Assembly: GCA_040219255.1 (NCBI GenBank)
Contig: JAVJSW010000012.1
Location: forward strand, 90,484-154,483
Direction of reading: 5' to 3'
Source of the DNA: Sumerlaeia bacterium
Lineage (GTDB): Bacteria > Sumerlaeota > Sumerlaeia > SLMS01 > JAHLLQ01
Length of the DNA: 64,000 bases
The position numbers and the translations under genes are program-made. The notes under the pieces were generated by a model. It did not search any database and was not told the DNA's origin. It saw only the letters and a program-made list of their open reading frames with translations. Shown piece by piece: positions 1 through 16,017 of this stretch; position 1 is the first letter of the stretch; every line of letters starts with the position of its first letter.

Positions 1-1350
1 CCGCAGCGTCGCCCCATCCCGCCAGAACGCCCGCCCGCCGCCATCGAGCACCAACCGATCCGGGTCCAGCGGCTCCGGATCCTCGCGCCCCGGCAGGCGC
101 ACAACCCATTGAAACCCCGAGCCCTCGGTGCCCACCAGGCTCAAGTTCGCCTCCTCCGACTCGAACACCAACGGTTCGCTCAGGTCCTCCCAGAGGGCGG
201 CCGCATCGCCAGACCATCGGGAAAACCAATGGATCGCCTCCTCCAGAGGCCACAGATCCTCGCGGCGCATGAAGGTGGTGTTGAGCGCCTCGGCGTCCCG
301 CACCGCCCAGGCGAGCAGCGCCCGGCTTTGCCGATCGAGCTCCCGCGTTCCCCCCGCTACTTCCTTCTGCAAGCGCAGAATCGCGTCCGGCTTGCGGGGT
401 GAGGCCACCAACGTGCCAGAGGTCAGCAGCAACTGCACGTTCATGTCCCACAGACCGTCGGCGTCCGCCTCTGGCACCCAGCGCAATTCCAGCTTGCCCA
501 GCGGCGCCCCCGGGCCGTCGCCGGCGCGCTGCGTGGTCAGCCAGTCGGTCAGCGCGCGCTCGCTTTCCTGGCGCGCGAAGTCGCGGAAAAGGGAGTGGGC
601 CTCGGGCGAAGCCAGGAATTGGCGCAAATCCTCGCACCCTTCGCCGGTTCTGCCGTACCCATGGCCGAGAGGCTCGGTCAACTGAACGAACTGCCTCAGG
701 GCTTGGATTGGGTTGGCGATCGCCGTCAGCGACCGAATCTTCCAGTACGATCCCCAATGCCGGTTCGACTGGCCGACTGTCCGGCGAAAGCCCTTGTCGA
801 TCCACCGCTCCCGCTGGGCCGGTGTCTTCGCCCTCAGATAAGTCCGCCACCACGGCTCCGCCTCGTCCTCCCGCGCCGACTCGCCCGCTTCGATCACCAG
901 CCGGTGGCAACCCTGATACGGCGAAATGGGCGGTGTCGATTTGCCCAGCAGCCACGCCCCGGGAAGCAAATCGTCGAACCTTTGCAGCCCATCGCATCCC
1001 CGCGCCAGAGCGTAGCCGATCACCCCCAGCGCCACCGCGTAGGTGTGTTTGCAATCGAAGGCCACGGGGCAGTCGCATTGCGTTTCGATCCCTTCCGCGC
1101 GGGTCAGGATCAACCGCGTCCGATAGGGCCGCGTGGCCGATCCGTCCACCGATGCGGTGATTTCATCGGGCAACGCGTCCGCCCGCAGGACCCGCCCTTC
1201 CAGAGCGTACTTGCGCCCCCTCTGGGCCGCGCCGGAACCGTCGAGCAAATCCAGGAATTCGAACAGTTGATCGCCCCAGGCGGGATCGAAGATCAGCTCG
1301 GACCCGGAAACGGGCCTGTTCTTGCGGTCGGTTTTTCGGCTCGGAGACAA
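1..1350 (-). CDS. SWIM zinc-finger protein, probable N-terminus of a SWIM-SNF2 (DEAD/H) helicase; runs off the window
   Basis: Not in the ORF track (no stop inside the window). Manual translation gives an open frame from TTG 1350 (in-frame ATG at 1380) to base 1: ...AQRGRKYALEGRV...ITASVDGSATRPYRTRL...TQCDCPVAFDCKHTYAVAL. This is the CxC-xn-CxH SWIM motif with the usual 'RG..Y...GRV' lead-in. The helicase assignment is inferred. Confidence 0.7.
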   Translation of the reverse strand, partial: MSPSRKTDRKNRPVSGSELIFDPAWGDQLFEFLDLLDGSGAAQRGRKYALEGRVLRADALPDEITASVDGSATRPYRTRLILTRAEGIETQCDCPVAFDCKHTYAVALGVIGYALARGCDGLQRFDDLLPGAWLLGKSTPPISPYQGCHRLVIEAGESAREDEAEPWWRTYLRAKTPAQRERWIDKGFRRTVGQSNRHWGSYWKIRSLTAIANPIQALRQFVQLTEPLGHGYGRTGEGCEDLRQFLASPEAHSLFRDFARQESERALTDWLTTQRAGDGPGAPLGKLELRWVPEADADGLWDMNVQLLLTSGTLVASPRKPDAILRLQKEVAGGTRELDRQSRALLAWAVRDAEALNTTFMRREDLWPLEEAIHWFSRWSGDAAALWEDLSEPLVFESEEANLSLVGTEGSGFQWVVRLPGREDPEPLDPDRLVLDGGGRAFWRDGATLR

Positions 1351-1437
1351 ACAGCCCGGCCCCCCTCGAAAAGATTGCATCCCCAAGGACACTCCCATCA
1401 TGTTACGCCTAAATTTCGTGTGCGCAAGGGAGCAATT

Positions 1438-2190
1438 GTGCGGCTCAGAGGAGTAACCATCACCGGACTGGAAGGCAAGCCCGAGGCGATTCTCTCCGCC
1501 GCCTTGGGCGAAGCATCTCTGCCCGGGCCGCTCCGCGTCTGGGGCAATCCGGAAATCCTCCTCGCGCCCCGCGCCGCCATCGCCGGCAGCCGCCAGGCCA
1601 GCCCCCGCTCCCTCGCCGCCATCGAAGGTCTCGCCGTCGCCCTCGCCCAGCGCGGCCTTTGCCTGGTCAGCGGCGGCGCCCACGGCACCGATTGCGCCGC
1701 CCACGCGGCCTGCCTCGGCGCCGGGGGCCGCACCGTCGTGGTGCTGCCTTGCGCCCTCGAGGACATCGACCTCGCCACCTGGCGCCCGAGGCTGGCGGGG
1801 CTGTGGAACGAGGAGCGGACGCTGTTCGTTTCGCCCTTCGCGCCCGGGTACCGCCCGACGCGCTCCAGCCCGGTCCTGCGCAATCGGCTGATTGCCTCCC
1901 TGGCGCAGGCCGCCGTCGCGGGCGAGACGGGATTGCAGGGCGGCACCAACCACTTTCTGACCTTCGCCCACGAGCGCCGGCTGCCGATTTTTCTCCTCGA
2001 TGTGTACGGCGAAGACCCCGCCATGGCGCAGGCCCTCGCGCTGTTTCGCCAGCAGGGCGCCCGCACGTTCACGCCGGACGACGCCTTTTCCGGCGGGTTC
2101 GCCGACCATATCGCCCGCGCCGCCACCGTCTGGCGCCCGGCCCCGAGGCCCGGCGGCCAATTGGCTCTCTTTGGCGAGGACGCGCCATGA
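1438..2190 (+). CDS. dprA: DNA-processing protein DprA/Smf (Rossmann domain only)
   Basis: Motifs AIAGSR, LVSGGAHGTDCAAH and RNRLIASLA...GGT. GTG start at 1438 chosen within ORF 595..2190; the stop overlaps the priA ATG (ATGA). Confidence 0.85.
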   Translation: MRLRGVTITGLEGKPEAILSAALGEASLPGPLRVWGNPEILLAPRAAIAGSRQASPRSLAAIEGLAVALAQRGLCLVSGGAHGTDCAAHAACLGAGGRTVVVLPCALEDIDLATWRPRLAGLWNEERTLFVSPFAPGYRPTRSSPVLRNRLIASLAQAAVAGETGLQGGTNHFLTFAHERRLPIFLLDVYGEDPAMAQALALFRQQGARTFTPDDAFSGGFADHIARAATVWRPAPRPGGQLALFGEDAP

Positions 2191-4481
2191 CATCCGCCTC
2201 CCGCTTTGCCCGCGTCGCCCTCAATCGCCCCATGCCGCCCTATACCTACGCGGTGCCGGAGTTCCTCGCCGGGAAGATCGCCCCCGGCGGACTTGTGAAG
2301 GTGCCCCTCGGAAAGAAAGCCGAAGTCGGTTTCGTGGTCGAAATGACCGATCACGACGAAGGCCTCGGGAAGAAGGTGAAAGCCATCGCCGACGTGGCGT
2401 CGCCGGAATACGCGATGACGCCGGAGTTGATGGCGCTGGCGCAATTTGTCGCCTCGTATTACTTTTGTAGCATCGGCGAAGCCCTTGCCACCGTGTCCGT
2501 CGTGGGCTTTCGCGATGTGCAGACCCAGCGCGCCGCGACGTTCCGGCTGAGGCCCGATTGGGAAGCCCTCGCCCGGGGCCTGACCATGAAGCAGCGGGCG
2601 GCCTGCGAAGCCCTGGCCGTCATGGGATTCCCCGCCGCCACCCGCCCCGCCCTGGGCGAGAGCGCCGGCGTCAGCACGGCCATCATCGGCAAGCTGGGCG
2701 AGGCCGGGCTGCTGGAAGCCGCCGACCCGGATTTGCCGCCTCCCGCGCCGGTGGAAACCGCCGCCGACGCCGATCTCGCCCTCCTGCCCGATCAGCGCAA
2801 AGCCCTCGACGCCATCACGGGCGCCATCGACGCCGGGGAGTTCGCCGCCTTTCTGCTCTTTGGCGTCACCGGCAGCGGCAAGACCGAGGTTTATCTGCAA
2901 GCCATGAAGCGCGTCCTCGAGCGCGGGGGGACGGCGCTGTGCCTGGTGCCGGAAATCAGCCTGACGCCGCAGACGCTGGCGCGCTTCGAAGCCCGCTTCG
3001 GGCCGCTGGGCGCGGAAATCGGAGTCTTCCACAGCCAGCAGACGCGCCGCGAAAAACTCGTCCTCTACCGCCGCATCCAGGCCGGCCGCGTCCGCATCGT
3101 CATCGGGGCGCGGTCGGCGGTGTTTTCGCCCCTGCCCCGGCTCGGCCTGATCGTGGTCGATGAGGAGCACGACGGCTCCTACAAGCAGGGCGAGACGCCT
3201 CGCTATCACGCCCGCGATATCGCCGTGCTGCGGGCCAATCGGCTCAAAATCCCCGTCGTTCTCGGCAGCGCCACGCCCAGCCTCGAGTCCTATCACAACG
3301 CGGAAATGGGCAAGTACCGGCTGCTGACCCTGACCGAGCGCGCGTCGGGCGAAGCGCTGCCCCCGGTGCGCGTCGTGGACATGGCCGAGCAGGTCGTCGC
3401 CCAGGGCAACATGAGCCTGTTCAGCGTCGAGCTGCGCGCAGCCATCGCCGAGCGCCTCAAACGCGGCGAGCAAACGCTGCTGTTCCTGAACCGGCGCGGA
3501 TTCAGCAATTTCCTCTTCTGCCCGTCCTGCAAGTGGGTCGCGCGATGCGACGACGACGACATCGCGATGACGGTGCATCGCCACGGCGGCGCGCGGAACG
3601 ATGAAAACGCCGAGCTGGACCTGTTCGTGCCCGACGCCGATGTGGGCGGCAAGGCGGTGCTGAAATGCCACTTCTGTGGCGTGAAAGCCGACGCGCCCAA
3701 GGTCTGTCCCGAGTGCCAGTACGAAGAGCTGATGTCCGTCGGCAGCGGCACCCAGCGCGTCGAGCGCGAGCTGGCCACCCTCTTTCCCGACGCCCGCGTG
3801 CTGCGCCTGGACCAGGACACGACGCGCGGCCGCCAGGCCTTTATTGACGCCTGGGAGCAGATGACGCGCGGCGACGCCGACATCATCCTCGGCACGCAGA
3901 TGATCGCGAAGGGTCTGCACCTGGAAAAGGTCACCTTGGTGGGCGTGATGCTGGCCGATGTGGGGCTCTTCCAGCCCGATTTCCGCGCCGAAGAACGCAC
4001 CTTCAGCGTCCTGACCCAGGTGGCTGGCCGCGCGGGCCGCAGCAGCGCCGGTCAGGTGATTCTGCAAACCTACCTGCCGCGCCACCACACGATCCGCTTC
4101 GCCTGCAACCACGACTACACCGGCTACTACCGGGCGGCCGCGCCCAAACGCCGCCAGATCGGGTTTCCGCCCTTTGGCAAGCTGATCGCCCTGACGCTGA
4201 GCGACCCCGACCGCGACAAGGCCTGGGCCGCGGGCAAGACCCTGGGGAACATCCTCTACCGCCTGAAATACCACACGAACGCCCGCGACGTGGTCATCAA
4301 TGGCCCGCTGGTGGCGCCGATTTCGAGGCTGGCGGGGCGGTTTCGCTACCGCCTGATGCTGCGCGGAGAAAGCCCCAGCCGCGTCGCCGGGCTGCTGCGC
4401 AGCGCCCTCGCCGACCGCGAGTACAAACTCCCCGCCACCACCCGCGTCGCCATCGACGTGGACCCGATGGATTTGCTGTAG
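2187..4481 (+). CDS. priA: Primosomal protein N' (replication restart helicase)
   Basis: GVTGSGKTEVY, LVPEISLTPQ, DEEHDGSYKQ, LNRRGF, Cys clusters, GTQMIAKG, QVAGRAGR, C-terminal IDVDP. Confidence 0.97.
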   Translation: MTSASRFARVALNRPMPPYTYAVPEFLAGKIAPGGLVKVPLGKKAEVGFVVEMTDHDEGLGKKVKAIADVASPEYAMTPELMALAQFVASYYFCSIGEALATVSVVGFRDVQTQRAATFRLRPDWEALARGLTMKQRAACEALAVMGFPAATRPALGESAGVSTAIIGKLGEAGLLEAADPDLPPPAPVETAADADLALLPDQRKALDAITGAIDAGEFAAFLLFGVTGSGKTEVYLQAMKRVLERGGTALCLVPEISLTPQTLARFEARFGPLGAEIGVFHSQQTRREKLVLYRRIQAGRVRIVIGARSAVFSPLPRLGLIVVDEEHDGSYKQGETPRYHARDIAVLRANRLKIPVVLGSATPSLESYHNAEMGKYRLLTLTERASGEALPPVRVVDMAEQVVAQGNMSLFSVELRAAIAERLKRGEQTLLFLNRRGFSNFLFCPSCKWVARCDDDDIAMTVHRHGGARNDENAELDLFVPDADVGGKAVLKCHFCGVKADAPKVCPECQYEELMSVGSGTQRVERELATLFPDARVLRLDQDTTRGRQAFIDAWEQMTRGDADIILGTQMIAKGLHLEKVTLVGVMLADVGLFQPDFRAEERTFSVLTQVAGRAGRSSAGQVILQTYLPRHHTIRFACNHDYTGYYRAAAPKRRQIGFPPFGKLIALTLSDPDRDKAWAAGKTLGNILYRLKYHTNARDVVINGPLVAPISRLAGRFRYRLMLRGESPSRVAGLLRSALADREYKLPATTRVAIDVDPMDLL

Positions 4482-4571
4482 GGAAGGGGTGTGGCGGGGG
4501 ATATTGAGGGATTGGGAAAGGTTCGTCATGGCGAGGCGCCTCCTGGGATTCGAGATCGAACAGGAAGGAGG

Positions 4572-4652
4572 GTCTCACAGGCCGGACGGTTTGTCCCCTC
4601 ATGTGGCGCTTGTGGAGCAAGATAGACAAAATAGACTTACTGCACTTATCAG
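4572..4652 (+). repeat. Dispersed ~70-80 bp element, copy 1 (TCTCACAGGC..GTTTGTCCCCTCATGTGG..CAAGATAGACAA..)
   Basis: Near-identical blocks at 19858-19926 (+) and 49062-49140 (-). Confidence 0.85.
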
Positions 4653-4727
4653 ACACCAGGAGCTTACGAAGGGTAAGTTGAGGGAACGGAGGGATTGAGA
4701 GCCGCGAGATGGGCACGAATGGAGATT

Positions 4728-4864
4728 GTTCGTAGTCCCGCCTTCAGGCGGAATGGGGGGGAGGCCGAGGTAGTCAACAGCCCGCACGATGGGGGGCGAG
4801 GCAGGTGGCTGGCGCAGAAGCAAGGTGGATGTTCGGCTTGCCGCCTGAAGGCGGAACTACGAGC
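4728..4864. repeat. Inverted pair of GTAG-type REP-like palindromes (REPIN-like)
   Basis: GTTCGTAGTCCCGCCTTCAGGCGGA at 4728-4752 and its near reverse complement CCGCCTGAAGGCGGAACTACGAGC at 4841-4864; a third copy lies at 46553-46577. Confidence 0.8.
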
Positions 4865-5036
4865 GGCGGGCAACCACACCTTCCGGGCGACTGGCATCAC
4901 AGCGTTTATGGACAACGGAGGGCGCCTCGAAGACGCGGCCGCCATCGCGGCCCACGAATCGACCCGCACGACGATGCTCTACGACCGCACGGGGGAGAAG
5001 GTGACCTTGGATAAGATCGAGCGGGTGCGGATATAA
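4865..5036 (+). pseudogene. C-terminal remnant of a tyrosine recombinase/integrase
   Basis: GNHTFRATGITAFMDNGGRLEDAAAIAAHESTRTTMLYDR contains the H-x-x-R, H and catalytic Y of box II. Everything upstream is replaced by the REP-like pair. Confidence 0.85.
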
Positions 5037-5037
5037 C

Positions 5038-5274
5038 GTCCGTCAAGGCGACAGGGATCCCGCCCGGCGACCCGGCGGGCCGAATCGGGCTGAGGCCGCG
5101 CAGCGTCATGGTCAGAAGTTCGTCGTCCGCCAGGTCTTCTGCCAAGAGCATGACACTTCCAGCCAAGCCATGCCCGATGCCAGATTGATCGTTGCTCAGG
5201 CGTAAAATGCCAGTGCGAAATTCGGGGGCGACTCCGCTGACGAGGGGTAATTCATCGGGGCGGTCGTCGACGAC
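5038..5274 (-). pseudogene. Start-less fragment homologous to the pre-toxin region of the toxin at 6313-7218
   Basis: Manual translation VVDDRPDELPLVSGVAPEFRTGILRLSNDQSGIGHGLAGSV...LRGLSPIRPAGSPGGIPVALTD aligns by eye with GDRP...PSELATG...GIGRLALD...GGGHGL...LLSKI...GPIPVPLTD. Confidence 0.6.
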
Positions 5275-5288
5275 TCAGCCTCCTTGAT

Positions 5289-6323
5289 TTAGCTATCCCC
5301 GTCTATTCGAGGCAACTCGTAGACCAGCAGTTCCTTGTCGGCTGTAGGGACAACGAAGTGATGCTGGAGGAAGATCGCCGGGGCCACAATATGCTTTTCC
5401 TCCCTCCAGCAAGAAACGAGTTTTCCACTGCGTCTCTCGAAGAGAGCCAACTCCGATCCGATTTCTGCCCCTAGGAGGAAGTCGTCATTGGCGCTGATAC
5501 AGTGATATACCCTCTGATGAGTCAGATATTGCTTCAGAACAATATACTCCCGTACAATACCCTCCGGACCAAATTGCATAATCTTGCTAGTTGACCCTAT
5601 GTATAATGACTCGCCGATCCTACGAAACATGGAAAAACCCTTCGGCAAGGACATTTGCCACTTGACAAAAAGATCATCGACGGAAATCGCTGTTAACGTT
5701 GGCTGGGATTTCTCGTTGTAGGGAACAGACACGATATACAAGTAACCCTCATGGACTATAAAGTCATACGACTTTCCGACTTCATAGACATTTCTTGTGA
5801 CAATTTTTCCATCCCTGTCTATCGGGCCGAAGTGAACGGATGACTTATAGTCTCCGGCACGGGAAACGACCATGACACCTCTGTGGGTGTGAAAGGCTCT
5901 GATGAATTGGGTTCTGTCGTCTGACCAAAGCTCCTCAGGACGTGAGGAAGGGAGGATTTTGTACAGACGACTGACATACGTCACTTTTATTATTGTAAGG
6001 AAGAAGACTGTGTCGCCAATGCTCCAAGAATCTTCAAGTATCTCATCCTCACGCAGGTCATTCTTGGAGACCACAAATTCCAGCCTCCCCTCCCGGACAG
6101 CATAATACGAGTTATCAGTATTCAAAACGTAGCATGACTCCTGGTTCTTAACGACCACACCGCGCGATTCATAGTTGATAAGCTTGGACATCGAAACGCC
6201 AGTGTCATCTTCTTTCAAAAAATATGAGCCCGTGCTATTATTAATTATAGGTACTACTGAAGCTTCGCCAACTACTTGCCTCGTAAACCTTGCATCAGAT
6301 CGTATAATGTGCTTAATCTTCAT
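5289..6323 (-). CDS. Low-GC predicted beta-propeller protein, putative immunity protein
   Basis: Markedly AT-richer ORF rich in beta-strand-like segments, with PQQ-like 'LTAISVDDLFVKWQ' and 'LFERRSGKLVSCW' segments. It overlaps the stop of the upstream nuclease-like ORF. Start may be 6323, 6332 or 6368. Confidence 0.65.
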   Translation of the reverse strand: MKIKHIIRSDARFTRQVVGEASVVPIINNSTGSYFLKEDDTGVSMSKLINYESRGVVVKNQESCYVLNTDNSYYAVREGRLEFVVSKNDLREDEILEDSWSIGDTVFFLTIIKVTYVSRLYKILPSSRPEELWSDDRTQFIRAFHTHRGVMVVSRAGDYKSSVHFGPIDRDGKIVTRNVYEVGKSYDFIVHEGYLYIVSVPYNEKSQPTLTAISVDDLFVKWQMSLPKGFSMFRRIGESLYIGSTSKIMQFGPEGIVREYIVLKQYLTHQRVYHCISANDDFLLGAEIGSELALFERRSGKLVSCWREEKHIVAPAIFLQHHFVVPTADKELLVYELPRIDGDS

Positions 6324-7218
6324 AACTGACATTTCCTTGCATACTTGGTGGAATTGAGTGATTTCCATTTCTGTACAGAAATATCACATCTCCTCCAAAA
6401 GTAGCATCGCCTAAAGCAATGCCTTGTCTTACCGCGTTCTCAATGGCGATTCGATCAGAATCCGAGTAGACTCTACTGAAAACATAATAGTACTTACGGC
6501 CAGCTCCAAAGACATCCACATAGTTTTCACCATGCCTCTCGGCCTGCTCCTTCAGTCTTTCCAAATCCGGAACTCCCTCATGGTTCTTATACTCATACAA
6601 GTCGGCACCATGCGCAATCACATCCATTTTCTGACTATCCGCGAGAATTGCAACATCTCCCGGAGCAAACCTCTGCCGCACATCCCATGCCTCGAAGTAA
6701 TAGCCCTTCAAATGCCCCGGGGTGTTCCCCGCCAGGGCGATCCAGTTGGTGAAGTTGTTGTACTCGTGCATGTCGCCGATGACTTCCAGGCCATCTGTCA
6801 CATCGAAATTCGATACCCCGAACATCCGTTTCATGACGTTATCGACCTTGGTCTCTCCGATTGCGACGTCCCCTGAAGCTTCAAACACCGCCAGCATTTT
6901 GACCACGTTTTTCGCCGCGTGATCGGTAAGCGGCACCGGGATGGGGCCTTGGGCGGCTCAGTGGAGGTGGATTTTCGACAGGAGCCTCATGCCGAGTCGG
7001 AAGCTTTCCTGCCGACCGGACGCTTGCCCGTACTCTTTCCAAAGATCGAACAGCGTGTCAAGAAGGCCGTGCCCGCCGCCGTCGGCGCCGGGATCGAGCG
7101 CCAAGCGGCCAATGCCAAGGAGCGCGTTGTGTTCTCCCGTTGCAAGTTCGGAAGGCATACGAGCGATTTCCTGCAGAAGACTCGCTGCCTCCGAAATTGG
7201 CCGGTCGCCCCTGTTACA
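6313..7218 (-). pseudogene. Orphan polymorphic-toxin C-terminal module with a PD-(D/E)xK (REase-fold) nuclease tip; one in-frame TGA at 6958-6960
   Basis: ORFs 6958..7158 and 6313..6936 share a frame that is open from 7218, directly after the LEA gene stop. Tip motifs KGYYFE...MDVI..ADLYEYKN...KEQAERH (E, D, ExK, Q). GC drops at about 6700. Confidence 0.65.
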
Positions 7219-8088
7219 TTATCCCCCCGTCCGCCCGCTCTTCGAAAACTCATGCGTAATCGGCGCGAACGGCGTTCCGAGGTCGATGTCGCCGGTCAGG
7301 TCGTAGCTCGCCTGGCCGCTTTTCATCATGTTGAAGGCCGCGAGGCCGAGGTCCATGGGGCGGACGCTGAAGGGGATTTCGAGGGTTTGTTCGCCGCCGG
7401 CTTCGAAGTTGGCCGCGTCGCGCAGGGAGCCCTTGGCCACCGACGTCCCCGAGAGTTTCAGGTCGTAGCCCATCTGCGCCAGCGAGGCGGCGAATTCGTT
7501 GGTGTTTTTGACTTTGAGCTTCAGCACGCCGTCGGCGTTCGCGAGCGAGAGGTTTTCCCAGGCGACGTCCTCGACGGTGACTTCGGGGGCGGCGGGCACG
7601 GGCAGCTCGCCCTTCTTTTCGATGGGCAGCCGGATGGGGTCGCCGCCGGAGGGGTTCGTCATCGAGAGGTCGAAGTTGGCGCGGTAGGGCAAGACCTGGC
7701 CGGGGCGGACACCCTGCACGGCGGTCAGCAGTTCCTGGAACCCGATGGTGAGCGGCAGTTCGACGGTGCGGGTGCCTTTGGCGGGCACGGTGCCGGTCAG
7801 TTTCTGGGCGCCCTGGAAGACGCTGGTGTCGCTGCCGCCAGCGGCCAGGCCATAGGTCACGTCGGTCAGGGGCAGCGCGAAGCCGTAGGGGTTTTCGATT
7901 TCGACGTCGAAGAGCATGGTGGCGCTCTGCTGCGAGAGGTCCTGGAATTTGGCGCCCTTGACGGAGGCGCTGGGTTTCGGGGCGGATTTGACGACGTCGC
8001 CGAGGACGCCCTGCATTTCCGCGCAGCCGCTGAGGCCGAGGCCCGCGAGGGCCATCAGGCCCGGGAAGAGGATCGCTCGTAGATTCAT
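7219..8088 (-). CDS. Lipoprotein with two LEA_2/WHy domains
   Basis: Lipobox LGLSGC; two repeats of 'V.I.NP..F...L..V.Y.L...G'. ATG at 8088 has an upstream GGAG. Confidence 0.85.
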   Translation of the reverse strand: MNLRAILFPGLMALAGLGLSGCAEMQGVLGDVVKSAPKPSASVKGAKFQDLSQQSATMLFDVEIENPYGFALPLTDVTYGLAAGGSDTSVFQGAQKLTGTVPAKGTRTVELPLTIGFQELLTAVQGVRPGQVLPYRANFDLSMTNPSGGDPIRLPIEKKGELPVPAAPEVTVEDVAWENLSLANADGVLKLKVKNTNEFAASLAQMGYDLKLSGTSVAKGSLRDAANFEAGGEQTLEIPFSVRPMDLGLAAFNMMKSGQASYDLTGDIDLGTPFAPITHEFSKSGRTGG

Positions 8089-8281
8089 GGGTCGGTCTCC
8101 GTTTTGGTTATTTCTACAGCCTGCCGGCCTGCGAATGTCGGGCCGTACCGGAGGGAAGGACAATGCCAGAGTGCGCGCCGGTTCCCCCGCAGAGGCCAGA
8201 TGGCACGCTCTTCTCTTGTCCCTTGCAATCGGACCGCTCTTGATAAAAGAACACTCTGACTTTCGAACCTAAGGAAACTCC

Positions 8282-9301
8282 ATGACTTTTTCTTCCACGC
8301 AGCGCCCGGCCCTTCGGCTGATGGCCGCCGCCGCTTGCTTCGCCGTCCTCGGCGCCACCGCCGCCGAGGCTCAGGACGGCGAGAAGTACCAGCTTCGTTA
8401 CAACCTCTCGCAGGGCGAGAGCTATGACTCCAGCGTCTCCACCGAGCAGGTCATCAGCCAGGAGATGATGGGCCAGAAGAGCGTCACCACCCAGAAGCTC
8501 GATCTGGCCTCTGGCGCCTCTGTGGCCGAGGTCGCCGAGGACGGCACGCAAGACATCCGTTACATCTTCGAGCGAGTTCAGGGCAGCGTCGAGGGCGACG
8601 CCATGTCGATGACCTTCGACTCTGACAACGCAGACGAAGAACCGTCCGGCCCCATGGCCGCGCTGTTCACCTCGCTGGTCGACAAGCCTCTGATCGTCTC
8701 CATCGAACCCGACGGCGACGTGGCGGGCATCGAAGGCTTTGGCGCCGTGATCGACGATGTGATCGAAAACGCCGGAATCCCCGACGAGCAGATGAAAGCC
8801 CGCGTCCGCTCTCAGCTCCAGGACCAGTTCAGTGACGACATGCTCAAGGAAATCATCCTCGGCGCGGTCTTCTCCTACCCCGCCGACGCCATGGCGGTGG
8901 GTGATTCCTGGACTTCCGACGGCTCGGAAAGCGTCGCCTTCCCCGTTCAGATGACCGATACTTACACGCTGGAAAGCGTCGCCGACGGCGTCGCCACGAT
9001 CAAGGTGTCCTCCGACATCGTGCCCCTGCCCGACCGCCAGGCCCAGGCCATGGGCCAGATGCTGGTGGACGTGGCCCTGACCGGCACAAAGACGGGCAAG
9101 CTGATGGTTGACCTGAAGTCTGGACTCGTGACCTCGGGCGAGACGTCGATGGACCTCTCCGGCGAAATCAACGCCCAGATGGGCATGCCCAACGCCCAGG
9201 GCGAGTCCGAGACGATGACCATCCCGATGTCCGTTAAGAGCAACACCACCGTCAGCAACAAGATGGTTGCCGCTTCCGAGGCCACCAAGACCGCCTCCTA
9301 A
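8282..9301 (+). CDS. Secreted protein, DUF6263-like
   Basis: Signal peptide ending AEA-Q; LRYNLSQGESY, FDSD, YPADAMAVGDSW and G.L.VDLKSG pattern; AAGGA RBS. Confidence 0.65.
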   Translation: MTFSSTQRPALRLMAAAACFAVLGATAAEAQDGEKYQLRYNLSQGESYDSSVSTEQVISQEMMGQKSVTTQKLDLASGASVAEVAEDGTQDIRYIFERVQGSVEGDAMSMTFDSDNADEEPSGPMAALFTSLVDKPLIVSIEPDGDVAGIEGFGAVIDDVIENAGIPDEQMKARVRSQLQDQFSDDMLKEIILGAVFSYPADAMAVGDSWTSDGSESVAFPVQMTDTYTLESVADGVATIKVSSDIVPLPDRQAQAMGQMLVDVALTGTKTGKLMVDLKSGLVTSGETSMDLSGEINAQMGMPNAQGESETMTIPMSVKSNTTVSNKMVAASEATKTAS

Positions 9302-9369
9302 GCGGCACGGCGCGCGACGCGCTTCCCCCCCGCCGGCAAGAATCTCTCCCGACAGAAACCCTCAGGGCG

Positions 9370-10350
9370 ATGACCCACTCCGATCCTCCTCCGCGGGAGG
9401 CCACCGCGCCTCCCGCCGCTCCCGCTCCCCCGCCGCCCTCCGTTTCCGTTGTCGTGCTGGCTTACAACAGCGCAGCCTTCCTTCCCATCTGCCTCGACGA
9501 ACTCGGCCGCAGCCAAGGCGTGACCTTGGAAGTCATCGTCGTGGACAACGCCTCGGCGGATGATTCGCACGCCATCGCTCAGGCCCACCCGGCCGTGGAT
9601 CGAGCCCTCCGCAGCGAGAAGAATCTCGGCTGCGCGGGCGGAAACAACCTGGGCTGGCGCGCGGCGAGCCATCCCCTCGTGGTGTTCCTCAACCCCGATT
9701 GCGCGGTGGACCGCCTGGCCGTGGCGCGGCTGGTGGCGCCTCTGATCGAGGACCCGGCGGTGGGTCTGACGGGGGCTAAGCTCTATTATCCCAACAGTCG
9801 AAGGCTCCAGCACGCGGGCGGCATCCTCTACACCAACGCGATGTGCGAACATCACGGGATGGGCAAAGAAGACCATGGCGAGTGGGACGATGTCTCGGAT
9901 GTGGACTACGTCACCGGCGCCTTCATCGCCGTGCGCCGTGCCGATCTCGAGGCCCTCGGCGGGTTCGACGAGGAATACTGGCCCGCCTACTACGAAGAAA
10001 CAGACCTCTGCACGCGGCTGCGGCGCTCCGCCAAGGCCGTGCGCTTCGTGCCCGCGGCGGTCGGTTGGCACTGGGAAAGCGTCGGCCTGGGCATCGAGAG
10101 CCCGCGCTTCATCCGCACCAGCTACCGCGCGCGCATGACCTATGTGGTGAAGAACGCGACGGCGGGCTGGTTTATGACCCGCTTTCTTCCCTTCGAAGTT
10201 CGTTGGTTTTGCGGGCCTTACGCCCGGGGCTATCGCTGGGCAACAATTTGCAGCTACGCCCATGGCGTCCGATTTGCTCTCTTCTGCCTTTCCCGGTTCC
10301 GCCGCCGGCCGCGCGCGAACCCACCCCGCCTTTCACGGACGGTCTCTTGA
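9370..10350 (+). CDS. Glycosyltransferase family 2
   Basis: SVVVLAYN, VVDNASAD, NLGCAGGNN, FLNPD, GGFDEEY..YYEETDLC. Confidence 0.92.
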   Translation: MTHSDPPPREATAPPAAPAPPPPSVSVVVLAYNSAAFLPICLDELGRSQGVTLEVIVVDNASADDSHAIAQAHPAVDRALRSEKNLGCAGGNNLGWRAASHPLVVFLNPDCAVDRLAVARLVAPLIEDPAVGLTGAKLYYPNSRRLQHAGGILYTNAMCEHHGMGKEDHGEWDDVSDVDYVTGAFIAVRRADLEALGGFDEEYWPAYYEETDLCTRLRRSAKAVRFVPAAVGWHWESVGLGIESPRFIRTSYRARMTYVVKNATAGWFMTRFLPFEVRWFCGPYARGYRWATICSYAHGVRFALFCLSRFRRRPRANPPRLSRTVS

Positions 10351-12107
10351 AAGCCCTTCTCGCTCTTAAAGTCTATCTCGTCAAGTATCGGTGGCGCTTC
10401 CTTTTCGGCATCGTCTTCGTTTTCTTCGCCAACTACTTCTCGGCCAAGGTGCCCGTGTACGCCGGCAAAGCGATCAACGGAATCACCGACCGTGCCACTT
10501 TGATGCAGGAACTCCGCGACGCCGCCTTGCTCCTGGTCTGCATCGCGGGGCTCGGCGGGGCCTTCCGCTACTTGATGCGCCGCGTCCTGATCGATACCAG
10601 TCGCGACATCGAATTCGACTTCCGCAACGACATCTACAAGAAGCTCCAGTCCCTCGACGCCACTTTCTACGATGGCAACAACACCGGCGATATCATGTCG
10701 CGCATGACCAACGATCTCGACATGATCCGCATGGTTCTGGGCCCGGCGATCATGTACACGGCGAACACGATTTTCGTGCTGCCGATCGTGCTCATTCAGA
10801 TGTTCCGCCTCAACTGGCAGGTCACCGTGGCGGGCCTGATGCCGCTCGTGCTGCTGCCCGCGCTGGTCAAGATCTTCGGCGCCCGCCTCCACCACGGCTA
10901 TCGCGCCCAGCAGGACGCCCTCGGCGATCTGACCACCTACACCCAGGAATCCCTCGCCGGAATCCGGGTCGTGAAGGCTTACGCGCAGGAGCAAAACCAG
11001 GAGCGCAAGTTCGACGCGGAAAACGACCACTACATCAAGGTCTCCCTCGACCTCGCCAAGACGCTGGCCTACTTCCGCCCGGCGATTCAGCTCATCGCTG
11101 GCAGCGGCCTCGCCATCATCCTCGTGGTGGGCGCGCGCCAGATCATGGCGGGCTCGCTCGATTACGGCGACCTGACGGCGCTGCTGCTGCTCTTCGGCAT
11201 GCTGGTCTGGCCCATGATCGCCGCGGGGTGGGTGATCAACCTGTACCAGCGCGCCAACTCCGCCATGGAACGCATCGCTGGAATCACGGAAGCCAAGTCG
11301 ATGGTCGGCGATTCGCCCACCGCCGTCTCCGCCGCCGATTTGCCCGGCGACCTCGACGTCGAATTCCGCGATCTGACCTTCGCCTATCCCGGCGCCGAGG
11401 AAGAACCGGTTCTCAAAAACATCACCCTCAAGATCCCGTCGGGCACCACCCTGGGCATCATCGGCCGCGTCGGCGCGGGCAAGAGCACCCTCGTCCATCT
11501 GCTGCTGCGCCTCTATCCGGTCGAGCGGGGCCAGCTCTTCCTTGGCGGCATCGACATCAATGACTGGCCCCTGGCCGAGCTGCGGCGCCGCGTCGCCATC
11601 GTGTTCCAGGAAACCTTCCTCTTCAGCGACACGCTCTCGGAAAACATCCGCTTCGGCGCGCTGAGTGAACTGACCCAGGAGCAAATCGAAGACGCCGCCC
11701 GCCAGGCCAACGTTCACGACGACATCGCCGGTTTCCCCAAGGGCTACGAGACGATGCTCGGCGAGCGCGGCATCAACCTCTCCGGTGGCCAGAAACAGCG
11801 CACCGCCATCGCCCGCGCCCTGGTGCGCGATTCTTCGCTGCTGATCCTCGATGACGCCCTCTCGGCGGTCGATACGCAGACCGAGGAGCAAATCCTCGGG
11901 CACCTGGAAACGGTGATGGCGAACCGCAGTGTTTTCCTGATTTCCCATCGCATCTCAACGGTCTCGATGGCCGATCACATTATCGTTCTGGAGGACGGAG
12001 TCATCACCGCCCAAGGCCGCCACGAAAGCCTCCTCGCCCAGCCCGGTCTCTATACCGAGTTGCACCGCAAGCAACTCCTCGAAGAGGAGGTGGAAGCCAT
12101 TGGCTAA
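10347..12107 (+). CDS. ABC exporter ATP-binding/permease (MdlA/YheI-like)
   Basis: TM domain, TGDIMSRMTND, GRVGAGKST, LSGGQKQR, degenerate Walker B ILDDALSAVD. TTG start overlaps the GT2 stop. Confidence 0.93.
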   Translation: MKALLALKVYLVKYRWRFLFGIVFVFFANYFSAKVPVYAGKAINGITDRATLMQELRDAALLLVCIAGLGGAFRYLMRRVLIDTSRDIEFDFRNDIYKKLQSLDATFYDGNNTGDIMSRMTNDLDMIRMVLGPAIMYTANTIFVLPIVLIQMFRLNWQVTVAGLMPLVLLPALVKIFGARLHHGYRAQQDALGDLTTYTQESLAGIRVVKAYAQEQNQERKFDAENDHYIKVSLDLAKTLAYFRPAIQLIAGSGLAIILVVGARQIMAGSLDYGDLTALLLLFGMLVWPMIAAGWVINLYQRANSAMERIAGITEAKSMVGDSPTAVSAADLPGDLDVEFRDLTFAYPGAEEEPVLKNITLKIPSGTTLGIIGRVGAGKSTLVHLLLRLYPVERGQLFLGGIDINDWPLAELRRRVAIVFQETFLFSDTLSENIRFGALSELTQEQIEDAARQANVHDDIAGFPKGYETMLGERGINLSGGQKQRTAIARALVRDSSLLILDDALSAVDTQTEEQILGHLETVMANRSVFLISHRISTVSMADHIIVLEDGVITAQGRHESLLAQPGLYTELHRKQLLEEEVEAIG

Positions 12108-14019
12108 GCCCGATTCGCACGCGCACGATCCGCAGGAAAACGCCGAAACCCCGGGAACGCAGGCGCCCCCCGCCCCCGGCACCGGCCATGGCCGCGTTCA
12201 GAACCCATCGCCTCAGGCCCGGCCACGCCGCGCCAAGAAGGCCGAGGTGGAGGAAGAAGCGCTCGAGTCCTTTGAAGACTGGACCCAGATCAAGCGCCTC
12301 GCGCGCTATCTCAAGCCCCGCAAAGGCGCCATCGCCCTCGCCGTCTTCCTTTCCATCATCATCGCCGGTTTGCAGCTCGCCCCCGGCCTGATGGTCAAAC
12401 CCATCGTGGACGATTACATCGTGCCGGGCAACTGGACCGGCGTGATCTGGATGGCCGGGATCCTTCTCGTGATCTTCCTGGTCATGTTCGGCCTGCAAGT
12501 TTACACCGAATACCAGATCGCCAAGATCGGCCAGCTCTCCATGCGCGATCTGCGCATGGACCTCTTCCGCCACATCAACAAGCAGGGCCTCGGCTTCTTC
12601 GACAAGCGCCCCGTCGGCTGGCTCATCACCCGCGTCACCAGCGACGTCAACGTCCTCAACGAACTCTTCGCCCAGGGCGTCGTGGGCATTTTCCAGCAGA
12701 TGTTCATGCTCGTCGGCATCGTCGTCGCGCTTCTGTTCTTGAACTGGCAACTCGCTCTCTGGACCTTCCTGGTGATCCCGGTGGTCATCGCGCTGTCGTG
12801 GTTTTTCCGCACCCGGGTCCGGCTCGGCTATCGCCTGACGAGGCTTCGGCTTTCGCGCCTCAACACCCACACCCAGGAAAACGTGACCGGTATGAAAACC
12901 GTTCACGCCAATACCCAGGAGCAACGCCAGTTCGGCCAGTTCGAACACCTCAACGATCTGCATCGCGACGCCCATTATCGCACAGTGTTCGCCTTCGCGA
13001 CCTACTTTCCGGCCATCGAAGTCATTTCCGCCGTCGGCCTCGCGCTGATCGTCTGGCAGGGCGGCCACCAGTTCACCCTCCAGATGGTCACCGTCGGCGA
13101 ACTCCTCGCCTTCGTGCTCCTTTTGGAACGCTTCTTCGCCCCGATCCGGGACCTGAGCGAAAAGTTCAATCTCGTTCAGTCCGCCATCGCCGCCAGCGAG
13201 CGCCTCTTCAAGATTTTCGACACCGCGCCCAAGATCAACGATCCCGAATCCCCCGCCGCCATGCCGATCAAGTCCGGCATGATCGAGTTCCGCGACGTCT
13301 GGTTCGCGTACAACGATGAGGACTGGGTGCTGAAGGGCGTAAGTTTCAAAGTGCAACATGGGCAGAAAATCGCACTCGTTGGTCCTACTGGCTCGGGCAA
13401 AACTACAATGATGGCGCTGTTATGCCGTTTCTACGACATTCAGAAGGGCGAAATCCTGCTCGACGGTGTCAATATTCAACACCTGCCCCAGAAACAGTTG
13501 CGCCAGCGCATCGCTATCGTGCTCCAGGACGTCTTCCTCTTCCGCGGCACGGTGCTCGACAACATCCGCCTCGGCGAGTCCGACGCGCGCATTAATGGGC
13601 AGCGCGCCGAAATGGTGGCCACGGCCGTCAACGCTCACACGTTCATCGAGCGCCTGCCCGGGGGCTACGACGCCAACGTCATGGAGCGGGGCGCCACTTT
13701 GTCCGTCGGCCAGAAGCAACTGCTCTCTTTCGCGCGGGCGCTGGCTTTCGATCCCGAGATTCTTGTCCTGGACGAAGCGACCTCGAACATCGACACGGAG
13801 ACGGAGCATTTGATCCAGGCCGCCATGGAGCGGCTGGTGGAGGGCCGCACGTCGATGATTATCGCCCATCGTCTCTCGACGATACAATCCTGCGACCGTA
13901 TTCTCGTGCTGCACCATGGGCATTTGGTGGAAGAAGGATCGCATCAGGAGCTGCTGGGGCGCGACGGTCTCTATCGGCGTCTCTATGAGCTACAATATCG
14001 CGAGCAAGCCGCCGTTTAG
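12100..14019 (+). CDS. ABC exporter ATP-binding/permease (MdlB/YheH-like), heterodimer partner
   Basis: GPTGSGKTT, LSVGQKQL, LDEATSNID, IAHRLST. Confidence 0.93.
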   Translation: MAKPDSHAHDPQENAETPGTQAPPAPGTGHGRVQNPSPQARPRRAKKAEVEEEALESFEDWTQIKRLARYLKPRKGAIALAVFLSIIIAGLQLAPGLMVKPIVDDYIVPGNWTGVIWMAGILLVIFLVMFGLQVYTEYQIAKIGQLSMRDLRMDLFRHINKQGLGFFDKRPVGWLITRVTSDVNVLNELFAQGVVGIFQQMFMLVGIVVALLFLNWQLALWTFLVIPVVIALSWFFRTRVRLGYRLTRLRLSRLNTHTQENVTGMKTVHANTQEQRQFGQFEHLNDLHRDAHYRTVFAFATYFPAIEVISAVGLALIVWQGGHQFTLQMVTVGELLAFVLLLERFFAPIRDLSEKFNLVQSAIAASERLFKIFDTAPKINDPESPAAMPIKSGMIEFRDVWFAYNDEDWVLKGVSFKVQHGQKIALVGPTGSGKTTMMALLCRFYDIQKGEILLDGVNIQHLPQKQLRQRIAIVLQDVFLFRGTVLDNIRLGESDARINGQRAEMVATAVNAHTFIERLPGGYDANVMERGATLSVGQKQLLSFARALAFDPEILVLDEATSNIDTETEHLIQAAMERLVEGRTSMIIAHRLSTIQSCDRILVLHHGHLVEEGSHQELLGRDGLYRRLYELQYREQAAV

Positions 14020-14529
14020 GGCCGGAATCTGGGCGAACGGGCGAGGCCTTCCCGGCCATGTCCTCGTCAAAACCTCGACAAATCCACCACTTTTGTCTTA
14101 GGTAAATGAGCGTACACTTTTCCATTGCGGTTGCTGGCCCGATGTGTGCAACTGTTTGCCTTCGGTTGGGACGAAGCCCTTCACGTTGGCTCCAAAGTTG
14201 CGGCAATGACTCAGAACCGGGACATTGCACCGCCTTTGGCCGGCAAAAAAGGGCTTGTGCCGGGACGGGCCGGGAACGCAGAGATTACAACCTTCGCCAA
14301 GAATGGCACGGTTTTCTCTAACTCAGTTGACGAGCCCGAGAAGCTGGACGACACTTCCAAGGTGAGTCGAACCTCGACTCCCGGAAACGAATCCAGAAAC
14401 CGGCCACCCAAAAAATTTGCGAAAACGGTCACGCGAGGAGGAACAAACAACCAACCCCTACTGTCTAACGATTTGCTCAGTCATGGTGGGCTTTGCCAAT
14501 TGAGGCGACTCTCCGGACACCCGTCCGGG

Positions 14530-14686
14530 TTTTTCCCTCCTACTAACATCCCTCGCTCCCGAAAAGGGACAAACTTCCCTCCCAATCACATCCCTCCAAT
14601 AGAACATCCCTCCTCACAATTCCCTCTATTGGTTCCACCAGGCTAACACCGGCCCCCGCCACCCCGGCGGGGGCCGCGCTGTTTTT
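14530..14686. ncRNA. Candidate sRNA with six CCCTC (+)/GAGGGA (-) repeats
   Basis: ACATCCCTC three times and TTCCCTC three times within about 100 bp of a long intergenic region, followed by a GC hairpin and T-run. Confidence 0.35.
14651..14686 (+). terminator. Rho-independent terminator-like hairpin
   Basis: GGCCCCCGCC-acccc-GGCGGGGGCC followed shortly by GTTTTT. Confidence 0.6.
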
Positions 14687-14796
14687 ACTCGCCCAAGCCA
14701 TTTTTTACCCGTTGCTCCCGCTCCTCGCCTCGACTTCAACAGCCGTTCAAGTCCCACAAAGTTTAGCCCTAATCCAGCGTTTGGGAGACATCCGTC

Positions 14797-16017
14797 ATGT
14801 TTGGACGCAAGAAGTTCGAAGACCTCTATGAAGACGCCGTCGAGGCCTATCAGGAGGGCGATCTCGACGAAGCCACGCGCCTTTGCGAGAAGGCCCTCGA
14901 CGCCGCCGGCAGCGCCAAGAGCAACCCCGATTCGGCCCGCGGCGAAGCCCTCAACCTCCTCGCCGGGATCTACCGACATCAGGACCGCCTCGAGGAAGCC
15001 CGCGAAGCCATGCTCGAAGCCCTTCCCCTCCTGGAGAAAGACCGCGGCGAAGACGACGTCGACTTCGCCGGCGCCGTGCAGAACGCCGGCGATCTTTGCC
15101 TTCAGACGGGCGATCTGGCCCGGGCCCGAACCCTCCTGCAAAAGGCCCTCGCCCTGAAGGCGAAGGTCGCTGGCGAAGACCACGAAGTCCTCTGGTTGCC
15201 TTACGCCTCGCTGGCCACACTGGAGGAAGAAGAGGGCAACGACGGGAAGGCCGCCGAGTTGTTCGCCAAGGCTCTGAAGGCCGCCGCCCACGACGGCAGC
15301 GGCGACACCTTGGCCAGCCTGGTGGAAAAACGCGTCGAGGAACTGATCGGCATGGGCCGCGGCGAGGACGCGGCGGAGTTCGCCGAGAAGGGCCAGGCGC
15401 TCCTGCGGGAGGTTTTCGAGCAGGACATCACGCCCTACACCGAGGCGGAGGTGAAGACCTGGGTGTTCGATTTCCAGCTCGCCCAGATGGTGCGACGCTG
15501 CACGATGTATCAGGAATCGGGCATTTTGCCGCACCCCCTGGTGCAAGTGATGCAGGCCCGCGCCAGCGCTCTGACGGCGGCCGAGCGGTATGCCGGCGCC
15601 GTCGCCGTGTTCGAAGAAGTGGACGCCGCGGCCCAGCGGGGCCGGCGGTTGTCGGGCCCCGAGGCGCGCTACCCTGAGGACATGCACCTGGACTCGCTGG
15701 CGCGGCGCGAATTCGATGCCGCCAATCCTCTCGCGCCGGAGCCGGACACGAAGGAAGCGGCGATGATGAGCCTGGACGGCAACGCGGAGGACCCGAAGCT
15801 GCTGATCGACCGCGCCCAGTTCCAGTACCGCTTCGCCCTGGCGCTTCATTTCCTGGGCCAGCAGACCAAGGACGCGGCGGCGCTGCGCCGGGCCGAGGAA
15901 CGCTATCTTTGGGCCGAGCCGATGTTCCAGCAGATCGTCCCGCCGCACCACCCGTTCTTCCAGGAATGGAACGCCAACCTGGCCGAGGTGCGCGAGGACT
16001 TGGCGGCGATGGGGTGA
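14797..16017 (+). CDS. Tetratricopeptide repeat protein
   Basis: TPR-like helices (ALNLLAGIYRHQDRLEEA; NAGDLCLQTGDLARARTLLQKAL); GGGAG RBS. Confidence 0.8.
   Translation: MFGRKKFEDLYEDAVEAYQEGDLDEATRLCEKALDAAGSAKSNPDSARGEALNLLAGIYRHQDRLEEAREAMLEALPLLEKDRGEDDVDFAGAVQNAGDLCLQTGDLARARTLLQKALALKAKVAGEDHEVLWLPYASLATLEEEEGNDGKAAELFAKALKAAAHDGSGDTLASLVEKRVEELIGMGRGEDAAEFAEKGQALLREVFEQDITPYTEAEVKTWVFDFQLAQMVRRCTMYQESGILPHPLVQVMQARASALTAAERYAGAVAVFEEVDAAAQRGRRLSGPEARYPEDMHLDSLARREFDAANPLAPEPDTKEAAMMSLDGNAEDPKLLIDRAQFQYRFALALHFLGQQTKDAAALRRAEERYLWAEPMFQQIVPPHHPFFQEWNANLAEVREDLAAMG

Follow-up and report, generated by a model that had tools for sequence, protein, structure and literature searches.

Known pre-toxin and trafficking domains include PT-VENN, PT-HINT, PT-TG, LXG and the Rhs core with its DPxG motif. 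In rAID systems, one recombinase stands at the head of a series of short immunity genes that share their orientation and have conserved intergenic motifs. For toxins of the restriction endonuclease (REase) type, Table 2 of Zhang et al. (2012; PMC3482391) gives the signatures GxxxE, IxD, ExK and Q for Tox-REase-7 and E, D, ExK, Q and Y for Tox-REase-6; the part of that survey used here also covers stand-alone toxin-immunity (TI) pairs. In this study, we analyzed a window of 64,000 nt from the metagenome-assembled genome (MAG) of a Sumerlaeia bacterium (GCA_040219255.1; contig JAVJSW010000012.1, positions 90,484–154,483, forward strand). A region at about 4.7–7.2 kb, mostly on the minus strand, carries a toxin-like gene, an overlapping gene for a predicted beta-propeller protein and a second copy of the N-terminal segment of the toxin-like gene. 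All positions are window coordinates, and open reading frames (ORFs) were called with translation table 11.

Compared with the TI pairs of polymorphic toxins, as far as the part of Zhang et al. (2012) used here describes them, the locus is alike in its short toxin-like ORF followed by a co-oriented partner, in its foreign, low GC content, in the 5′ fragment of a further copy lying downstream and, for a relative in a SAR324 genome, in an array behind a giant gene. It differs in that its 5′ region is unmatched by any full-length toxin gene in either genome, in that the segment always precedes the same domain family, and in that each member has a start codon of its own. On balance, we somewhat favor reading the region as a horizontally acquired, decaying toxin-immunity islet, the main gene of which would belong to a rare, stand-alone, nuclease-like family and be neutralized by the propeller. 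A small foreign islet would thus sit between two convergent host genes, and its main gene (ATG 7158 to TAA 6313, split by a TGA in the assembly) would encode a nuclease toxin with a C-terminal PD-(D/E)xK-type domain, and the overlapping propeller gene the immunity protein. The second junction would be the truncated N-terminus of another family member, which would have lost its body at the boundary to an integrase remnant. A first-pass annotation of the same DNA had proposed orphan cassettes and a new toxin-delivery family with its full-length carrier elsewhere. Our results make a toxin-immunity flavor plausible, supported by context, and do not support a new pre-toxin junction or delivery family.

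Reading frame and relatives of the toxin-like gene

On the minus strand, an open frame begins at 7218, immediately past the stop codon of a LEA_2 family gene, and carries the motif series GDRP..PSELATG..GIGRLALD..GGGHGL..LLSKI..GPIPVPLTD, as the first-pass annotation had described. The N-terminal region of the toxin-like gene (junction 1; 6961–7218) had also been called start-less, which is not strictly so, because ATG 7158 lies in frame, and an in-frame TGA (6958–6960, minus strand), falling between ..KIHLH and AAQGPIPVPLTD, had been overlooked. Owing to this TGA, table 11 yields a 66-aa ORF from ATG 7158 (P0004) and a 207-aa ORF with a GTG start (P0002; 6313–6936, minus strand), which holds the end of the N-terminal region and the PD-(D/E)xK-like domain. 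The only contig of public run X1 that spans the site (record 7, 6835–7209, depth 3.3) reads GGA (plus strand 6960 A>C) and has a second change at 6948; since its depth is just 3.3, the GGA allele is possibly an error. With GGA, the ORF from ATG 7158 to TAA 6313 has 281 codons, a length near those of two homologues, P0005 (257 aa) and P0006 (254 aa).

Both homologues match across the stop codon. An exhaustive HMMER search of 1.84 billion protein representatives with a single-sequence query returned the two ORFs of the window itself and one further protein, P0005 (E value 1.6e-18, query 81–262); it missed P0006, which surfaced in a later word-index search and is encoded on a 1,025-nt Logan contig. 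By BLASTP, the window frame matches P0005 at 3e-30 (query 50–290) and P0006 at 3e-12 (27% over 233 columns) from residue 71, 15 residues before the TGA. P0005 and P0006, each a singleton cluster, match one another at 2e-5. All three sequences align end to end through the TGA with 21 invariant columns, and they share an architecture of about 254–281 aa, in which an N-terminal region of 40–95 aa is followed by a C-terminal domain of about 200 aa. A start codon is available in every full-length member (3/3), the ATG of P0005 overlapping the upstream stop, and each of the three segment-bearing full-length proteins has the same homologous C-terminal domain. This pairing has one exception, in SAR324, where a fragment of 32 aa gives way in another frame to sequence like the main (giant) gene of that locus. 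Because the C-termini of the homologues are essentially invariant, we take the junction to be the N-terminal region of one family, not a segment shared by diverse tips.

The family is very rare, with three proteins among the collections searched. No further member was found in 74 other genomes of the phylum or in 63 other genomes of the SAR324 order, and pattern and family scans of metagenome contigs, scans of viral contigs and tblastn searches of plasmids and phages gave none either. A single-protein search of 60 relatives returned noise only (E values 0.03–0.65 in 8 genomes), and in the word-index search with the tip the only match among 4411 candidates was the query itself. The profile search for long proteins with diverse C-termini, proposed in the first-pass annotation, gave no long protein with the segment in the host genome, the SAR324 genome or the same 74 and 63 related genomes; the host genome contains the two copies alone.

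The base composition is foreign to the host. Total GC is 0.61 at 6961–7218, 0.55 at 6700–6936 (the first 79 codons of the 207-aa ORF) and 0.45 at 6313–6699; GC at third codon positions (GC3) in these parts is 0.67, 0.75 and 0.42, which bears out the composition switch placed at about 6700 by the first-pass annotation. The downstream 359-aa gene has a GC of 0.46 and a GC3 of 0.53, so that the low-GC parts of the islet range from 0.42 to 0.53 in GC3, as against 0.82–0.86 in host genes. Junction 1 has GC values of 0.70, 0.47 and 0.67 at the three codon positions; both junction segments fit real or former coding sequence, because the middle codon position is lowest in GC in the frame first proposed. 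The fall in GC from 5′ to 3′ is shared by the homologous genes of the two hosts (0.50/0.44/0.33 in SAR324, L020:10001-10771); GC3 falls steadily in SAR324 (0.63/0.50/0.25), but in the window it drops in the 3′ part alone. The 5′ part of the gene is close to host GC in either host, and the 3′ part and the partner gene lie far lower. This might reflect recombination, in patches, between the 5′ part and resident copies. Two further observations concern run X1 at this place: extra depth at 7044–7089 comes from a contig that lacks 3 nt, in frame, at 7073 (in a GGC GGC GGG run), and a contig matches the window up to 7089 and then continues with 255 nt of unrelated sequence. The latter may derive from another locus with a short patch of copy 1, or may be a chance GC-rich match.

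Second copy of the N-terminal segment

Copy 2 (junction 2; 5038–5274, minus strand) opens 12 nt past the stop of the 359-aa gene and carries the series DDRP..APEFRTG.ILRL..GIGHGL..LSPI..GGIPVALTD, in agreement with the first-pass annotation; the stop proposed right after LTD did not stand, as the frame continues to 4909 on the strand opposite the integrase remnant, and it is the similarity alone that ends at LTD. Copy 2 is a fragment, since it has neither a start codon at the equivalent place nor a body.

The claim that the two segments repeat one motif series fared differently from test to test. Pairwise BLASTP of the copies gave nothing at E≤100, their DNA alignment was uninformative, and direct searches within the genome did not link them. 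In a shuffle test (2000 shuffles, local and global alignment), the local score of 47 compared with 27.2 ± 5.2 for shuffled sequences and was reached by 3–5 of the 2000 shuffles, and the global score by 0–6, a similarity that is unusual and not overwhelming. When copy 1 and the N-terminus of P0005 were combined into a profile and run against the 84,930 six-frame ORFs of the genome, copy 2 ranked as the top non-self match (E value 8.5e-4), with the next unrelated ORF at 0.93; a family profile matched copy 2 at 9e-11. With the N-terminus of P0005 alone as query neither copy was found, so the profile result rests mainly on the similarity between copies 1 and 2.

The decisive link comes from P0006, which shares 97% identity with the final 35 residues of copy 2 before continuing with a body homologous to the 207-aa ORF; it ties both copies together independently. 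At the DNA level, a patch of 105 nt (5037–5141, minus strand; about 98% identical) recurs in the P0006 gene, in a metagenome of the same study and in another context, with two differences (5080 and 5083) and loose ends at 5037 and 5141. Its flanks in the P0006 gene are unrelated to the window on both sides, and a 30-nt flank of this alternative context is absent from the MAG. As a separate observation nearby, a contig of run X2 (depth 2.3; 91–95% alike on either side) has 27 other letters over 75 nt within 5234–5310; this 75-nt swap, which extends from the tail of the 359-aa gene into the beginning of copy 2, represents a variant cassette boundary in the community.

Candidate nuclease domain

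The C-terminal domain would be a nuclease toxin, as suggested by an invariant D...ExK...Q series, agreement with the Tox-REase-6 and -7 signatures, a low-confidence placement of strands and helices, and Atlas neighbors. In the numbering of P0002, D105, E115-x-K117, N118, Q131 and H135 are invariant in all three members. The better AlphaFold2 (AF2) model, which is of low confidence, places strands at 105–109 and 113–117 and a helix at 125–135. The Atlas feature (language-model) neighbors of P0002, which we treat as a lead only, are Tox-REase-3/5/7 and EC869-like proteins (0.88–0.91), and nine of the ten best family-bearing feature matches fall into one family or clan, the REase-fold toxins.

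Set beside the Tox-REase signatures in the portion of Zhang et al. (2012) used here, the family shows the ordered D...ExK...Q in 3/3 members and GxxxE in 2/3, with Tox-REase-7 and -6 as the closest signatures. It differs in that no Pfam Tox-REase model matches at E≤10 and in that its domain of about 200 aa has a long helical lead-in, the fold being a prediction only. Tox-REase-3 (PF15647) was found in 0 of 75 genomes of the phylum and is equally absent from the control genomes, hence this count is uninformative.

Downstream gene for a predicted propeller

The minus-strand gene that follows (5289–6368) has 359 codons from ATG 6368 or 344 from ATG 6323 and, with either start, overlaps the 3′ end of the toxin-like gene (11–56 nt), which confirms the overlapping AT-rich gene of the first-pass annotation. 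Its product is predicted to be a PQQ-like beta-propeller: the Atlas model superposes on PQQ_2 propellers with a template modeling (TM) score of 0.63–0.71 and meets the Atlas naming bar. Pfam does not recognize the protein at E≤0.1, the only one of 1134 candidates to match its sequence is the protein itself, and no signal peptide is visible by eye. Judging from position alone, it would be a cytoplasmic immunity protein neutralizing the toxin-like gene product.

A tightly linked downstream gene for a PQQ-like propeller is present in both loci with known neighbors, the window and SAR324; since P0006 lies on a 1-kb contig with its neighbors unseen, the comparison of partners is one of two loci. 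The SAR324 partner (662 aa) begins 24 nt after P0005 and matches Beta-prop_ACSF4 at 3e-8, below the family cut-off, with weak PQQ_2 and BamB matches. Both proteins thus resemble BamB-type propellers (PF13360), from which the window protein differs by its lack of a Pfam match and of a visible signal peptide and by an immunity role suggested by position. In the portion of the literature consulted, no described beta-propeller immunity protein for a nuclease toxin turned up.

SAR324 locus

In a SAR324 MAG (G061), a cassette array lies behind the gene for a protein of about 3,114 aa, and P0005 is its final toxin-like member. This locus is of polymorphic-toxin type, with an unclassified carrier. The giant protein (L023:13702 to L020:4986) has the Pfam domains Transglut_core and PKD only; an 'inactive transglutaminase' is among the N-terminal domains of Sec-exported polymorphic toxins in the part of Zhang et al. 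(2012) used here. The array (L020:5006-12786) comprises paralogous genes of 158, 162 and 180 aa, other small ORFs including a pair of 124 and 125 aa, an orphan fragment of the giant's pre-tip region, P0005 with the propeller gene, and a BrnT toxin-antitoxin gene just downstream of that pair.

The first ~100 nt of the P0005 gene are repeated (about 90% identity by eye; 66% at the protein level, residues 1–32) after another copy of the upstream immunity-like gene, and this repeat precedes, in another frame, a homologue of the giant's pre-tip region. The giant itself has no match to the segment (z score 0.5 for its C-terminal 450 aa). A likeness seen by eye between its 'GIHDLV' region and the segment was also considered and failed the shuffle test (z score 0.5–0.6). 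In the host genome (G000), a 3,304-aa open frame (C65:49272-59183, minus strand) resembles, in its N-terminal region, the giant's transglutaminase part (E value 1.6e-6); by eye it shows YD repeats, a DPSGW motif and a GIY-YIG-like C-terminal tip, and it lacks the segment of the window.

Host flanks, integrase remnants and Rhs cassettes

The islet occupies the gap between two convergent host genes. On one side lies the LEA_2 family gene (7219–8163, minus strand; Pfam E value 7.2e-28; GC3 0.86), whose TAA (7219–7221) abuts the islet, and on the other a 940-aa ORF (1659–4481, plus strand; GC3 0.82) read by eye, from the translation only, as the primosomal helicase PriA (priA). LEA_2 homologues are present in 8 of 10 other genomes of the family, and their neighbors differ in both genomes that were read (G002 and G001). 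No transfer RNA gene was found at 1–15000, no Rfam match at 3500–9000 (E≤1), and promoter and terminator scans gave signals that did not exceed the shuffled expectation.

Convergent with the cassette, the plus-strand frame 4695–5036 ends in the C-terminus of a tyrosine recombinase (about 57 codons, 4863–5036). Its match to Phage_integrase (PF00589) is sub-threshold (E value 0.028; 14.6 bits versus a cut-off of 27.1), but it is 63% identical to a longer copy on contig C34 that passes (34.8 bits versus 27.1), so the integrase remnant noticed in the first-pass annotation is borne out. Against other remnants in the genome, its identity is 96% over 57 aa, and 63–70%. The genome holds at least six remnants of this integrase family, those elsewhere lying on contigs C24, C34 (twice), C27 and C44, and the assembly showed no intact copy. 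The window remnant contains or is preceded by an element resembling a miniature inverted-repeat transposable element (MITE; 4730–4862) with 22-nt inverted arms (4730–4751 and 4841–4862; 95% complementary), the arm sequence of which recurs at more than 20 places in the genome. The stretch 4495–4760 belongs to a dispersed repeat of about 150–250 nt with at least 20 blastn matches (74–85% identity) on many contigs; this repeat and the MITE-like arms both occur just ahead of integrase remnants in the window and on C24, C34 and C44.

The remnants on C34 (twice; C34:1-5500, L042) and C27 (C27:1-2500, L043) are convergent to three orphan Rhs cassettes, which carry the end of Rhs_assc_core (TIGR03696; 61–66 bits versus a cut-off of 32.5) and have Peptidase_M76-like (two) or AMOP-like tips. 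Both C34 cassettes, in tandem, are each followed by a low-GC gene of 324–352 aa, and C27 by a low-GC stretch with small ORFs only. The three downstream proteins of 324–359 aa in the host genome show no similarity among themselves. The islet resembles these cassettes in having a toxin C-terminus, a low-GC downstream gene and a convergent integrase remnant, whereas the Rhs core end is theirs and the window segment has no Rhs core, no DPxG-type motif and no match to the Rhs-type protein on C65. With rAID systems, the host units share a tyrosine recombinase next to toxin- and immunity-related cassettes and immunity genes kept without a working cognate toxin; they differ in that a truncated, convergent remnant of an integrase closes each unit, instead of one recombinase heading the array.

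Evaluation of the toxin-immunity reading and alternatives

Several results weigh against the toxin-immunity islet that we favor. The toxin-like gene is broken in the assembled genome. The glutamate expected in helix 1 of many PD-(D/E)xK enzymes (E82, GxxxE) is T in P0006, a difference also from the Tox-REase signatures; of the E..D..ExK..Q tip given in the first-pass annotation, D105, E115-x-K117 and Q131 hold in all members and this glutamate does not. The two AF2 models, from a single sequence and from a two-sequence alignment, reach predicted local distance difference test (pLDDT) values of 32.8 and 45.6, too poor for a test of the alpha-beta-beta-beta-alpha-beta core fold, and Foldseek searches with them gave no match at E≤0.001. 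Atlas structure matches to REases have TM scores of 0.43–0.48 and stand among unrelated folds, and the domain is unrecognized by Pfam (E≤10), NCBIfam (E≤1), PADLOC and PDB sequence profiles (chance-level rows only). Neither a secretion signal nor a known trafficking domain turned up that would explain delivery. The propellers of the window and SAR324 have no detectable sequence similarity to each other.

The strongest alternative is the model of the first-pass annotation, in which the segment is the pre-toxin or recombination junction of an unseen carrier and the two copies are orphan cassettes for tip swapping. The annotation was right that the junction is unlike VENN, DPxG, PT-HINT and LXG: neither segment has a Pfam match at E≤1, no VENN or DPxG is visible, and P0005 and P0006 have no relevant Pfam pre-toxin or trafficking family at E≤10. 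The mosaic 105-nt patch with unrelated flanks on both sides fits such a model, as do the SAR324 repeat standing ahead of different, giant-gene-like sequence, the near-host GC of the 5′ part beside the much lower GC of the 3′ part and partner in both hosts, and the opening of copy 2 so close behind an immunity-like gene, in the style of an orphan cassette; moreover, with the host genome 92% complete, a carrier could have escaped assembly. However, all three full-length proteins with the segment are short, have start codons available and end in the same domain, no long ORF with the segment occurs in either genome or in the 74 and 63 related genomes, and the C-terminal part of the SAR324 giant is unmatched. 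We therefore regard a carrier as unlikely. What stands of the proposed toxin and immunity cassette array is a foreign, low-GC pair with a second-copy fragment beside an integrase remnant; its status as the orphan of a carrier is not supported.

A nuclease-like gene and a propeller could also serve another role, as a maintenance or addiction module of a mobile element or as an undescribed defense pair on an integrase element. The adjoining integrase remnant, the lack of a secretion or trafficking domain, the BrnT gene just downstream of the SAR324 pair and the short, stand-alone form of all three proteins agree with this. We consider it quite improbable, since PADLOC assigned no family to five proteins, the SAR324 copy lies within an array typical of polymorphic toxin loci, and equivalent positions beside the same integrase remnant hold Rhs toxin tips in the host genome.

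That the upstream frame and copy 2 are chance open frames in GC-rich DNA, leaving only the two low-GC ORFs as genes in non-functional debris, is very improbable. In its favor, DNA of 62% GC often has open frames, a stop interrupts the frame, pairwise BLASTP of the copies gave nothing, and the P0005 N-terminus alone brought up neither copy. However, this explanation is already largely refuted by two independent homologues aligning across the TGA into the upstream frame, the genome-wide profile match and the copy-2 patch within the intact 254-aa ORF of P0006, and the codon-position GC pattern fits coding.

A more speculative reading goes further. Small polymorphic toxins of a new class may use the N-terminal segment for handling and recombination and exchange it as patches between paralogues. 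In this small phylum, the toxin-immunity units would be moved as blocks bounded by a conserved flank of integrase remnant and repeat, in an integrase-linked cassette system distinct from the orphan arrays of Rhs and contact-dependent growth inhibition (CDI) systems and from rAID. The near-identical patch in P0006 and the SAR324 repeat are evidence for patch exchange; this reading as a whole is doubtful.

Conclusions

For now the finding is modest, since the gene is broken and comes from a single MAG, and its function is a proposal. It does show that a repeated segment ahead of a toxin tip need not be the junction of a carrier. In the host genome, toxin cassettes repeatedly stand beside remnants of a single integrase family, a hint at how such cassettes travel. 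If the favored reading is true, a very rare restriction-endonuclease-like toxin family with a large beta-propeller partner would join the known bacterial conflict systems.

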